A stretch of 64,000 nucleotides of DNA from an uncultured Bacilli bacterium (GTDB lineage: Bacteria; Bacillota_I; Bacilli_A; RF39; UBA660). The position numbers and the translations under genes were made by a program. Position 1 is the stretch's first letter; each line of letters begins with the position of its first letter. The notes beneath the pieces are model-generated. The model had not been told where the DNA came from and searched no databases. It worked only from the letters and a program-made list of their open reading frames with translations. Of the stretch, positions 43,065 through 46,417 are shown one piece after another. The DNA is taken from the NCBI GenBank assembly GCA_934167885.1, contig CAKPMB010000007.1:612-64611 (forward strand), in the 5' to 3' direction.

Positions 43065-44663
43065 CTATTTCAAATGTTTCTTTATCATTAAAATATATAT
43101 AATTGATGAGATAAAAGCCATTAAGCCAATAGAAAAAATGATATAACATAATAAATCTATCGATAAAAAGCCTAATATTTTATCATTATCATCTTTAATA
43201 ATATTTATTGTCCAAAGATAAGTGCCCGCAGAATCACGAGCATTAATGGTAATAACACTACCATTTTTTAAATTATTATTACCAATTATTGAGTATAATA
43301 TTTCATCATCTTCTGGTAATACTTTAATATTCAAAGACTTAGTGTCCCTACTTACTTTTAAGTTATAACTACTTATTGCTTTAGAAAAGTTTAAATCATA
43401 CCCTAAAATTTCAATATTCTCAATATATACCATACTTGCTTCTAATGATAAACGCTCTATTTTAATGGTATATTCCTTAACGGTTTCTTTTTCACTAATA
43501 ACTTTAATTTTAAACTCATTTATACCAACTTCTAATCTAATATCTTCATACTCTATACGTGAATTAGCACTGGATGATGCTTGAATATTAGTTTTAGCAT
43601 ATTTATAATTTAAGGAAACACTATATTCATACACATTATCTTGTAGGGGTATTTCTTTATTATTGATAATAAGTTTAGTTAATTCACCAATACTACTTCG
43701 ATTGTCTTCACGCGTAACATTTATTGTATATACTTTTTCAGTAAGTTTTTCAGATTTAACTTTAATTAAAATTTCATTCTTACCATAAGCAAGATCAACC
43801 ATTCTACTTCCATAACCTTCAACAAAACTTGCTTTAGCATCACTTAAAGTAGCATTAATTCTAAGCGATGTTATGTTAGATGACACATTAAAGGAATACT
43901 CTGTTTTAAGTTTATCAAAGTTAAAGTCAATTTCCTCAATAGTTAAATCACTTAGAGTATTGTCATTGCTTCGATTATCTTCTCTAGTGAAATTGATAGT
44001 ATATGTTAACTTCGTGCCTTTTTCACTTGTTACTAACAGATTAAAAGATGATTTGTCATAATCAATCGTTTTATCACCATTTCCTAAAATGGTTGCTTTA
44101 CTATCACTTAAAATACCTTCTATTTTGACATTTCGTTTGGTAGTTGTGATATTATAAGTTTGTTTAGATGGTGAGAAATCTTTAAGGGATTCACCATCTA
44201 TTTTAATATCACTTAAAGTATTAACATCTGATAAAACTTTAATTGTTGTATTAACATCACTTGCATAATAGACATCGGCACTAGGAGTGAATTGAATACT
44301 TTTAAAATTCAAACGTTTATCATCAAAAGTAGCATTTTTAAATACTTTAACTTTTAATACTCCAAATGAGATGTTGCCATTTTTAGAAGATGTGCACGAT
44401 AAAACTAATCTTTTACCATTCAAACTACCCGTCCAAGGTGATTTAGTTGTCCATTCAAGTTCTAAATCACTATCTGCATCAATATTTAAAGACATGCCTT
44501 CAATCCCAACACTTTTATTAATATTTCCAGAGACATCACAAGTTGTTTCTTCATCTTTGGATAAAACCGTATTATTGCATTTAACGACCAATGATACATC
44601 ATTATCAGCATAAACATTTATTACAAAGATTAAAGGCAAAAGAATAAGTAAAAACTTTTTCAT
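43065..44663 (-). CDS. Cell-surface protein with four cadherin-like beta-sandwich repeats and C-terminal TM anchor
   Basis: Signal peptide MKKFLLILLPLIFVINVYA; four repeats of about 90 aa of the form LSDIKIDGESLKDF.P.K.TY...; C-terminal hydrophobic helix plus KKHLK. Confidence 0.6.
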   Translation of the reverse strand: MKKFLLILLPLIFVINVYADNDVSLVVKCNNTVLSKDEETTCDVSGNINKSVGIEGMSLNIDADSDLELEWTTKSPWTGSLNGKRLVLSCTSSKNGNISFGVLKVKVFKNATFDDKRLNFKSIQFTPSADVYYASDVNTTIKVLSDVNTLSDIKIDGESLKDFSPSKQTYNITTTKRNVKIEGILSDSKATILGNGDKTIDYDKSSFNLLVTSEKGTKLTYTINFTREDNRSNDNTLSDLTIEEIDFNFDKLKTEYSFNVSSNITSLRINATLSDAKASFVEGYGSRMVDLAYGKNEILIKVKSEKLTEKVYTINVTREDNRSSIGELTKLIINNKEIPLQDNVYEYSVSLNYKYAKTNIQASSSANSRIEYEDIRLEVGINEFKIKVISEKETVKEYTIKIERLSLEASMVYIENIEILGYDLNFSKAISSYNLKVSRDTKSLNIKVLPEDDEILYSIIGNNNLKNGSVITINARDSAGTYLWTINIIKDDNDKILGFLSIDLLCYIIFSIGLMAFISSIIYILMIKKHLK

Positions 44664-44665
44664 AA

Positions 44666-46417
44666 CTATGCCCTATTCATTGACCATTCTTTAATGACAT
44701 TAACATTAGAACTATTAGGCGCTGGATTTGGTAAATCCATTTTAATAATTATTGGAACCTTAAAGGCCGAACCAAAAGCAAGGCAATAACCCGGTTGCAA
44801 GCCTTTTTGCTTTTCAATAATCTCTTCCGTAATATAAGGAACCATTCGTGTGATATAATCAATGTCCCGTGGATGAGTTGTTTTAAAGATTAAGAAATTA
44901 GCACATTGTGACATAACTGTTTCAGATAATTCAACTGGTCTTTGAGAAATTAAGGTAAGTAAAACACCATACTTTCTTCCTTCTTTGCTAATTCGATCAA
45001 AGATGTTATAACCTAAAAGATTAATATCCTCTCCCATTTTAACATAACGATGAGCTTCTTCTACTAATATATTAAAAGGCACACTACCACGTTCAGGTAA
45101 TTTTTTGGCATATTCAAAAATTAATCGTGAATAAATTTTAACAATAACTTTAGCAATACTATCATCCACATCTTCTAAATTAATATTAACAATCTGATAC
45201 TTACGACCATCTTTTATTAACAAGGACGCTAAATATTGTTCAATATTAATAAAATTAGGATAAGAAAAGAATTTAGCATTAGAAGAAATAATAAGCGAAT
45301 GTAAACGGACTTTAATTGTAATAGCATCACTATAAGTTTGACGATTATCTAACCAATTATCAGCAATCAAAGCGAATGATAAAGCTTTTTCTACATCATT
45401 TAAAGTATACATGTTATATTGTTGATTTTCATAACCATCGAATCGTTCATCAATGAAACTAGCAATATACTCTGTAACTAAAATACTTTCAGTAAAACTA
45501 CCATTCGCATCAATATGGAAACAATCTCTAAATTTACGTTGATAACCAGCACCTTGCACTACTGCTTCCATGTTAAAAGCGCTAGTTGTGCAAGTATTAA
45601 AAATATTAAAGATTTTATTTCTTTTCGTTGTAGCTAAATCATTTGAATACATAATACTCATCATCGCTTTCGCTATCAAATGATTTTGAAATCTTGTTGA
45701 TGTTTCATCATTTAATGAAAAAGTTTTAGCAAGCTTTATCATACTATCAATCAAAGTTAATTGATTAAAATTATTCGCTGATAGTAAAAGAGCCCAATCA
45801 TCAACAGATAACAACCATACAGGGATTTGAACTTTCTCATATGGATAAGAATTATTAGTTGTAATTACTTTAAAGTTATAATTAGGGTTTATTTGATTCA
45901 TATTACGAAAAGCACTTATATATTCACCATTATTATCAAATAATATGAAACTAGCCTTATAAGGTTGAAAACGAGCATTTTCAAAAACACTTTGAATAAC
46001 ACGCGTTGTTCCATAACTTTTACCACATCCTGAATTACCTAAAATGGTAAAATGATTACTAAATAAATTATTAATATCAACATAAACACGGCGATTATTA
46101 TAAAAAGGACTTATACCAAAACTCATATTAGTATCCTTTTCTTCACCCGTTATCAGAGTTATTTCACTATCATCTAATAATCTTATTTGTGCATTAAAAG
46201 ATGGTTTGGCAATAATTCCACCATAAAATTTATTGTTAATAATCTCCCCAATAAATCTTGCTTCAACCATATCATCTTTTATATATTCAACCTCACATAC
46301 AATACTTCTTTCACCATCTGCTAAAACAATATGCATATTCATTATGTTAGCAGATAATACACCCTTTAATTTAATATGAACCCCATGATCACTTATATAA
46401 GTAATTCTATCAAACAT
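44666..46417 (-). CDS. HerA/DUF87-family ATPase (HAS-barrel + RecA-like core)
   Basis: Walker A ILGNSGCGKSY, FDNNGEY, Walker B NILVEEAHRY, GRKYGVLLTLISQRP. N-terminal beta-barrel region. Confidence 0.7.
   Translation of the reverse strand: MFDRITYISDHGVHIKLKGVLSANIMNMHIVLADGERSIVCEVEYIKDDMVEARFIGEIINNKFYGGIIAKPSFNAQIRLLDDSEITLITGEEKDTNMSFGISPFYNNRRVYVDINNLFSNHFTILGNSGCGKSYGTTRVIQSVFENARFQPYKASFILFDNNGEYISAFRNMNQINPNYNFKVITTNNSYPYEKVQIPVWLLSVDDWALLLSANNFNQLTLIDSMIKLAKTFSLNDETSTRFQNHLIAKAMMSIMYSNDLATTKRNKIFNIFNTCTTSAFNMEAVVQGAGYQRKFRDCFHIDANGSFTESILVTEYIASFIDERFDGYENQQYNMYTLNDVEKALSFALIADNWLDNRQTYSDAITIKVRLHSLIISSNAKFFSYPNFINIEQYLASLLIKDGRKYQIVNINLEDVDDSIAKVIVKIYSRLIFEYAKKLPERGSVPFNILVEEAHRYVKMGEDINLLGYNIFDRISKEGRKYGVLLTLISQRPVELSETVMSQCANFLIFKTTHPRDIDYITRMVPYITEEIIEKQKGLQPGYCLAFGSAFKVPIIIKMDLPNPAPNSSNVNVIKEWSMNRA

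Follow-up and report, generated by a model that had tools for sequence, protein, structure and literature searches.

An orphan HerA-family ATPase and an independently inserted cadherin-like gene in the signal recognition particle operon of uncultured gut Bacilli

Bacterial HerA ATPases are known as partners of NurA, in end resection, or of SIR2 and DUF4297 effectors, in anti-phage defence. Every characterised HerA is, to our knowledge, a DNA motor; the FtsK-HerA superfamily also includes protein-translocating ATPases, EssC/EccC of the type VII secretion system and VirB4 of the type IV secretion system (T4SS). Here we analyze a HerA gene found without any of these partners, in a 64,000-nt stretch of DNA (hereafter the window) from an uncultured RF39 Bacilli bacterium (GenBank assembly GCA_934167885.1, contig CAKPMB010000007.1, positions 612 to 64,611). 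The gene, herA, encodes a 583-aa HerA/DUF87 ATPase (44666..46417, minus strand; Pfam DUF87 5.7e-20) and sits inside the operon of the signal recognition particle (SRP). It is followed by cad, the name we use for the gene of a 532-aa cadherin-like, exported and membrane-anchored surface protein (43065..44663, minus strand; Pfam Cadherin-like PF12733 6.4e-21). We find that herA has long had its place in the SRP operon, and has been inherited vertically there, in a broad clade of RF39-like gut Bacilli that are uncultured and have reduced genomes, and that cad is a later, independent insertion, confined to the window's sub-clade, which occupies a variable slot between herA and ffh and can persist without herA.

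The operon itself has a described counterpart, the Firmicutes (smc-)ftsY-ylxM-ffh arrangement, to which the original prediction likened it. As in that arrangement, ftsY, ylxM and ffh are co-oriented in the window and overlapping or closely spaced. Unlike in it, ylxM does not lie directly before ffh, because herA and cad stand between them; the genes upstream are cca and hup rather than smc; and a probable terminator and promoter stand 5' of ffh. The comparison therefore stands for ftsY, ylxM and ffh and falls for smc. All five open reading frames (ORFs) were confirmed on the minus strand, and in the ORF list they follow one another in the transcription order ftsY, ylxM, herA, cad, ffh with tight spacing. 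The SRP receptor gene ftsY (46719..47720, minus strand; Pfam SRP54 1.4e-77, SRP54_N 1.2e-13) overlaps by 4 nt with ylxM, which encodes a UPF0122 helix-turn-helix protein (46426..46722, minus strand; PF04297 4.7e-26). The ATG of ftsY agrees with the N-termini of its homologues, a longer TTG-started ORF reaching to 47795 being mechanical, and its orthologues are 64–84% identical in 23 related loci. The ylxM stop codon overlaps the GGAGGA Shine-Dalgarno sequence of herA, 8 nt 5' of the herA ATG, and only 2 nt separate the herA stop from the cad ATG; both spacers are as originally predicted. The SRP54 homologue gene ffh (41655..42962, minus strand; SRP54 5.2e-75, SRP_SPB 9.9e-34) begins 102 nt downstream of cad, and Pfam places tgt and a Sua5/YrdC-like gene downstream of the operon.

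herA is an old operon resident and cad a later insertion

We gathered 92 loci via HerA, with flanks of 6–8 kb, and classed their neighbours by marker proteins, clustering and Pfam. Wherever HerA was at least 49% identical to the window HerA, the gene order was ftsY-ylxM-herA. Within this SRP clade, ylxM lay directly 5' of herA in all 24 loci with upstream sequence, and ffh lay directly 3' of herA in 10 loci, at gaps of 6–74 nt; the gap between ylxM and herA was 2–24 nt in most loci. By comparison, cad followed herA in just seven of the 92 loci and in the window, and HerA there was 66–82% identical. Other contexts were found for herA elsewhere. In nine loci whose HerA was 38–47% identical, it lay at the replication origin (oriC), in the arrangement rnpA-yidC-jag / herA-dnaA-dnaN-comK-recF, where herA points the same way as dnaA and away from yidC. 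Eleven loci (HerA 39–43% identical) had the order (PP2C)-herA-sepF-divIVA(-ileS), with matches to SepF at 8.5e-28 and DivIVA at 1.3e-14, and two loci, including Acholeplasma sp. CAG:878, had herA between rny and recA. No neighbour gene cluster recurred across the HerA clades among the 92 loci.

In a neighbour-joining tree of 93 HerAs, each genomic context was clade-specific. The SRP clade was monophyletic, with the rny/recA pair nested in it as a relocation, and the cad-bearing loci formed a single sub-clade inside it. The window HerA falls in the same HerA clade as Acholeplasma sp. CAG:878, the only named member; GTDB places CAG-878 in RF39 (PMC8035907), an order of uncultivated gut bacteria whose genome is highly reduced (PMC6784871). 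By this indirect route, too, the organism of the window is probably a member of RF39. Across loci, identity of HerA to the window correlated with that of FtsY, YlxM and Ffh (Spearman 0.50, 0.74 and 0.61; p = 0.015, 4e-5 and 0.009, respectively). The clade-specific contexts and this co-divergence argue for vertical descent with rare rearrangement, not for a mobile island. Around herA and cad in the window, a search for mobile-element scars returned chance AT-rich repeats only, without flanking repeats, and the sole good inverted repeat was the probable terminator hairpin described below. The G+C content of herA and cad (0.23–0.32) is no different from that of the flanking DNA; the window as a whole is low in G+C (about 0.23–0.34), and nearly all of its genes lie on the minus strand.

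Because the 92 loci had been found through HerA, we re-sampled loci via Ffh as a ASCERTAINMENT control. Many Ffh-matched contigs were, to judge by their identical lengths, the same contigs as HerA or cad matches, and three independent long contigs remained. Two of these three (L101 and L102; L numbers denote related loci) carry herA, in the order ftsY-ylxM-herA-cad-ffh. The third, L103, has the order ftsY-ylxM-cad-ffh, with a gap of 25 nt between ylxM and cad and no herA remnant in 13.7 kb. Thus herA is widespread, not universal, at the SRP-operon site, and cad persists without it.

The junction between herA and ffh is a variable slot whose fillers differ among lineages (L001, L013, L024–L028, L045). 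Besides cad, it holds an ABC transporter (in a sister pair of loci), signal-anchored proteins of 201–515 aa, an 87-aa protein with two transmembrane segments, paired proteins of ~145 aa with multiple transmembrane segments, cad together with a 1288-aa surface protein, and one cytoplasmic AAA-like protein. Membrane or exported proteins make up 8 of the 9 insert types, a proportion that may or may not exceed the accessory-gene background.

HerA homologues number in the thousands; the best 120 clusters are 65–100% identical and come from gut metagenomes and metagenome-assembled genomes (MAGs) labelled 'Bacilli bacterium'. An exhaustive search of 1.84 billion representatives delimited a compact full-length subfamily of roughly 15–20 clusters at 50% identity, beyond which scores drop to the level of generic HerA matches in two stretches. 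Outside this subfamily, the nearest relatives, at ~30% identity, are SIR2-type HerAs carried on plasmids of Listeria, Enterococcus and Lactobacillus.

Architecture of the HerA and cad proteins

The original prediction had assigned the ATPase to HerA by its sequence hallmarks, and this assignment was borne out: GNSGCGKS, FDNNGEY, VEEAHRY and GRKYGVLLTLISQRP are all present in the herA translation, and Pfam, PADLOC, the PDB, AlphaFold and Foldseek agree. The product matched Pfam PF01935 DUF87 ('Helicase HerA, central domain') at 72.8 bits against a cut-off of 23.2, and its best PADLOC match to the HerA model reached 2.7e-101 (337.9 bits, residues 81–580). It scored far below the cut-offs of the NCBIfam anti-phage HerA equivalogs, at 166.5 against 850 bits for NF042944 (the model 'HerA_antiphage_2') and 139.8 against 800 for NF042943; NCBIfam HerA equivalogs scored 93–108 bits against cut-offs of 800–970. 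Sequence matches to HerA chains in the PDB ranged from 8.7e-41 to 3.5e-27. The best solved relatives were DUF4297-HerA complexes (9c1m, 8.7e-41; 8xau, 5.9e-40), followed by SIR2-HerA and then Sulfolobus HerA (4d2i, 3.5e-27).

An AlphaFold model made from an alignment of 30 sequences (pLDDT 89.3, pTM 0.85) comprises an N-terminal all-beta HAS barrel (residues ~1–80, strands within 2–80), a RecA-like alpha/beta core and a helical insertion (~205–400). HerA is defined by three domains, a HAS barrel, a RecA-like core and a helical bundle (PMC11291478), so the predicted structure has HerA-type architecture. Foldseek matched the model over its full length to DUF4297-HerA, SIR2-HerA, HerA-NurA and Sulfolobus HerA, with probability 1.00 and TM-scores of 0.55–0.72. 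No transmembrane or membrane-anchoring segment appears in it. The motifs comprise Walker A (G127–S134), Walker B (E453–E454) and GRKYG (480–484). Across 30 HerA sequences, G127, G132, K133, A455, G480, K482 and G484 are invariant, and E453, E454, H456, R481, Q492, R493 and P494 are at least 90% conserved. All three motifs are invariant or nearly so among relatives 22–82% identical, and this conservation down to 22% identity indicates that HerA is under purifying selection.

Many HerA relatives carry disordered C-terminal tails of 80–370 residues rich in S, N, T, P, D and E (P0121, P0122, P0125, P0126; L016, L019–L023, L003). The relative P0124 has a long N-terminal extension in place of a tail, P0121 has repeated 'EHNPALDFG' motifs, and the window HerA has no C-terminal tail. 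A docking motif in these tails was considered, given a terminal [NS]FI[ED]NM and LV[ST]F repeats in P0121, P0122 and P0125, and was rejected, as no terminal motif is common to the 27 tailed members.

The cad product matched PF12733 at 75 bits against a cut-off of 24.2, with Pfam scoring two stretches only. The signal peptide, four cadherin-like repeats and C-terminal transmembrane anchor that had been predicted for it all appear in its AlphaFold model (pLDDT 87.7), which in addition shows an N-terminal beta-sandwich that had been missed, making five such domains: the N-terminal one at residues 23–143 and the repeats at 150–227, 237–318, 328–404 and 414–490. A hydrophobic N-terminal signal peptide precedes these domains, and a transmembrane helix (502–531) and a basic cytoplasmic tail of ~5 residues follow them. 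Foldseek matched the model to S-layer proteins (SbsB, EA1), cadherin ectodomains, RTX-adhesin repeats and a cohesin-FnIII module. A cohesin domain (PF00963) also occurs in several of its sequence relatives, and no solved structure related to cad by sequence was detectable. Like PF12733/cohesin surface proteins, the S-layer proteins SbsB and EA1 and RTX adhesins, cad is a string of beta-sandwiches with a signal peptide; unlike them, it is anchored by a C-terminal transmembrane helix and not by SLH or sortase motifs. The family is small (128 matches) and confined to related gut MAGs, and orthologues are only 32–46% identical where HerA is 66–82% identical. Most simply, the cad product would be a fast-evolving adhesin or S-layer-like surface protein that profits from the expression of the operon.

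Candidate roles of the orphan HerA

We consider it probable, with some reserve, that the window encodes an orphan HerA DNA translocase that is fixed in its lineage, vertically inherited and active on its own chromosome, next to which cad is a separate later arrival. HerA would form a hexameric ring that translocates double-stranded DNA at the expense of ATP, acting on the host chromosome in recombinational repair, in chromosome segregation at division, or in both. This proposal builds on the characterised HerAs, which are DNA motors, and on the neighbours of herA, namely dnaA-dnaN, recA, sepF-divIVA and, in the SRP operon, growth-linked genes. One parallel in role is the HerA-NurA end-resection motor of Archaea and Deinococcus-Thermus (4d2i, 9x1m; PMC12977600), which shares family and fold with the window HerA and has a housekeeping role in DNA repair that resembles the one proposed; moreover, one orphan HerA clade adjoins recA. 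In contrast to that system, no NurA, Mre11 or Rad50 genes are found nearby (none of these Pfam families occurs among the called neighbours), and the window HerA is less similar to HerA-NurA than to defence HerAs. FtsK/SpoIIIE offers a second parallel: it belongs to the same FtsK-HerA superfamily of ring ATPases, the proposed chromosome handling at division would be analogous to its own, and one herA clade lies just upstream of sepF-divIVA. Unlike FtsK/SpoIIIE, the window HerA has neither an N-terminal membrane domain nor a gamma domain (the KOPS/SRS-reading domain), carrying a HAS barrel instead. The FtsK motor family PF01580 gave no match to it at E<=0.01, and FtsK_SpoIIIE was at most a faint precomputed match in a few relatives.

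Two other readings start from the position of herA beside cad and inside the SRP operon. The original prediction saw herA and cad as one inserted two-gene module, a surface sensor or receptor coupled to a translocase-type ATPase in the cytoplasm; the surface protein would signal to the ATPase or be serviced by it. We regard this as very improbable. Adjacency speaks in its favour, as cad directly follows herA, at gaps of -1 to 14 nt, in all eight herA-ascertained members of the sub-clade and in L101 and L102, and the pair stays together where ffh is not next (L009, L010) and where another gene separates cad from ffh (L013). However, across the wider clade herA occupies this operon position in the absence of cad, L103 retains cad without herA, and the distant cad homologues P0310 and P0297, checked for co-occurrence elsewhere, lie in unrelated neighbourhoods and not near HerA. 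Nor does the predicted topology help: with ~5 cytoplasmic residues in cad and no transmembrane segment in HerA, there is nothing through which the surface protein could contact a soluble ATPase, so signalling between the two is not plausible. No PADLOC model matches cad. L103 and the phyletic pattern thus largely refute the two-gene module; when the ylxM-ffh region was compared in relatives, what held was its lineage specificity, not the two genes as a unit. A HerA-cadherin fusion was also considered as evidence of a link and was rejected, because HerA representatives of 750–940 aa carry only low-complexity disordered tails. In practical terms, the place of herA beside a surface-protein gene in one operon reflects, here, a variable insertion slot and not a functional pairing. 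The original prediction had offered as its alternative a lineage-specific acquisition with an SRP-related role, and again the lineage specificity stands. A role in SRP function or membrane biogenesis, with the ATPase aiding protein targeting, insertion or secretion, would fit the operon that herA shares with ftsY, ylxM and ffh, seen in at least 26 loci, its position beside yidC-jag in the oriC clade, the exported and membrane protein genes that gather in the herA-ffh slot, and a weak NCBIfam match of the herA product to EccCb (4e-4). We nevertheless find it decidedly improbable, since other clades keep herA by recA/rny and sepF-divIVA, herA at oriC runs with dnaA and away from yidC, HerA lacks a membrane anchor, all solved close relatives are DNA motors, and the EccCb match is at P-loop level only.

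Defence is the remaining candidate: herA could act in cryptic anti-phage defence, as a HerA of the defence type that is retained in a strongly expressed operon and whose effector has escaped recognition, is encoded elsewhere or has given way to another protein, perhaps a host factor like YlxM. Among characterised proteins, its best relatives are indeed immune HerAs, in PADLOC and in the PDB (9c1m and 8xau for DUF4297-HerA, 8wiv and 8j4u for SIR2-HerA). The HerA of a Listeria plasmid SIR2-HerA pair aligns over residues 50–578 (29% identity, E 5e-92), and the first ~50 barrel residues, which do not align with it, would allow a different partner. SIR2-HerA systems (Nezha; 8j4u, 8sub, 8wld; pPIR00540) thus share with the window the same three-domain HerA, colinear over those residues and with a Foldseek probability of 1.00, and DUF4297-HerA (8xau/8xav, 9c1m, 8ziq; PMC11291478) gives the best solved matches in sequence and in fold (5e-31), with HAS barrel, RecA-like core and helix bundle all present in the window protein. 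The genetic setting differs. On Listeria pPIR00540, the SIR2 gene overlaps the HerA (DUF87) gene from upstream, forming a canonical SIR2-HerA pair, whereas ylxM and not SIR2 lies upstream of herA in the window. With this plasmid as a positive control, tblastn found no SIR2 homologue in the window or in ~100 loci, and neighbour clusters and Pfam tables showed no DUF4297/Cap4-like nuclease gene adjoining herA at any locus, nor any other recurrent partner. The arrangement matches no described defence system, as had been noted at the outset, and we found no paper describing it; run on the pair, the defence-system finder PADLOC strongly matched HerA alone. The Listeria pair is plasmid-borne, while the window herA is chromosomal, syntenic and vertically inherited, its product falling short of the NCBIfam anti-phage cut-offs. 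Its positions are conserved, clade-specific and inside core operons rather than variable islands, and HerA co-diverges with its neighbours. Finally, phage or plasmid association is absent: phage genomes gave two partial matches only, one of them a terminase, and IMG/VR gave one match at 24% identity, nothing comparable to herA. For these reasons we judge an anti-phage role improbable.

Several observations weigh against the chromosome-motor reading that we prefer. The function proposed for HerA derives from family membership and gene neighbourhood, and no neighbour is common to all HerA clades, which makes guilt by association weak; housekeeping operons may simply be stable sites to sit. The nearest characterised relatives are immune HerAs, and L103, with no herA in its operon, indicates that this site can do without herA. 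In the sub-clade, cad keeps its place directly 3' of herA even where ffh is not next, and the close translational coupling of the two genes, which fits co-expression, would also be compatible with a functional link.

Judging from its sequence relationships, the orphan HerA is probably a sister of the defence HerAs that accompany SIR2 in Firmicutes, or else derives from them through loss of its effector and subsequent fixation. More speculatively, an effector-less HerA may have been domesticated in RF39-like Bacilli as a near-core DNA motor of the cell cycle, replacing a possibly lost FtsK/SpoIIIE septal clearance or AddAB-type end processing. This is a tentative and rather unlikely proposal, which would explain why herA is found at oriC, by recA, by sepF-divIVA or in the SRP operon. 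None of FtsK, AddAB, SMC and NurA was found among ten window ORFs scanned (all eight of more than 500 aa and two of ~450 aa). In the literature we found no relevant paper on HerA with ylxM, HerA with SepF/DivIVA or FtsK-HerA in Mollicutes, and nothing on 'trimeric HerA' or on RF39 with FtsK/AddAB. The protein families are known; what appears to be undescribed is a clade of orphan HerAs that is fixed in core operons across a lineage of order rank: a HerA without a partner, passed on vertically through abundant uncultured gut bacteria in operons for replication, recombination, division and the SRP. Should it prove to be a housekeeping motor on the chromosome, it would match in bacteria the role that has long been suggested for archaeal HerA. 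It would then also illustrate exchange between the machineries of immunity and housekeeping, and hint at how RF39 bacteria handle their chromosome with a minimal set of genes.

Transcription signals and neighbouring genes

A consensus scan placed a sigma-70-type promoter-like site, TTGACC-17-TATAAT (11/12; 47748..47776, minus strand), ~28 nt upstream of the ftsY ATG, where it is the probable promoter of the operon. At the other end of cad, folding and an inverted-repeat search identified a 15-bp AT-rich hairpin that encloses the cad stop codon and is followed by a T-rich tract (43040..43083, minus strand). This hairpin folds better than all but 1 of 200 shuffles (z = -3.3) and corresponds to inverted repeat I17, which is 93% complementary; a terminator scan that requires G+C did not flag it. 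Because of the folding z-score, we accept it as a probable intrinsic AT-rich terminator, or attenuator, ending the unit ftsY-ylxM-herA-cad, in which cad would be co-transcribed with the three genes before it. An extended -10-like box, TGATATAAT, read from the sequence ~22 nt upstream of the ffh ATG (42984..42992, minus strand), is a possible separate promoter for ffh. Since the hairpin with its T-tract and the TGATATAAT box both lie 5' of ffh, this gene is probably transcribed at least partly on its own. In relatives where ffh lies 6–25 nt after herA, there is too little space for terminator or promoter signals, which points to ftsY-ylxM-herA-ffh as the ancestral unit; the insertion of cad probably brought or created the break.

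A T4SS-like cluster occupies 53292-63277 on the minus strand of the window, ~7 kb upstream of the SRP operon. It contains a VirD4-type coupling protein (53292-55505; T4SS-DNA_transf 7.7e-55), a protein of 728 aa whose C-terminal domain is Peptidase_C39_2 (56208-58394), a P-loop ATPase resembling VirB4/TraG (58432-60219) and a protein of 708 aa without a Pfam match (61151-63277). As VirD4 and C39 genes also lie upstream of hup-cca-ftsY in L007, the cluster may be a conserved chromosomal system and not a recent conjugative element. The window also encodes, on the minus strand, a T2SSE/Tad-type pilus ATPase (26080-27429), uvrC (33238-35055), a BspA-type surface protein with leucine-rich repeats (12347-13879) and a radical-SAM/SPASM enzyme (10607-12337); L007 likewise has RcpC and T2SSE. 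An 844-aa, N-terminally anchored protein without a Pfam match (49370-51904, minus strand) shares a ~130-aa domain, at 31% identity, with a 263-aa protein 11 kb away (37364-38155, minus strand), and has a C-terminal motif of ~60 aa in common with a protein of 523 aa from L001 (11523-13094). These three proteins look like a lineage-specific surface-protein family.

Among the related loci, nine carry a small hydrophobic ORF of 84–94 aa (173 aa in one locus), without a Pfam match, between ftsY and ylxM (L016, L017, L020, L023–L027, L045); it is absent from the window. In eight oriC-clade loci (L012, L032, L033, L035–L038, L054), a ComK-family gene (PF06338, 2.1e-26) lies downstream of dnaN, between it and recF, an unusual site for a competence regulator. 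L002, L005 and L006, contigs of GTDB-representative MAGs, have Bacilli-type ftsY-ylxM-herA or rny/herA/recA arrangements and are yet labelled Muribaculaceae or Clostridium sp., probably through errors of naming or binning. Serpin genes (PF00079) lie directly downstream of cca in L102 (13089-14308, in tandem) and L103 (9210-10433), and such bacterial serpins, in a gut lineage with reduced genomes, may serve in interaction with the host.

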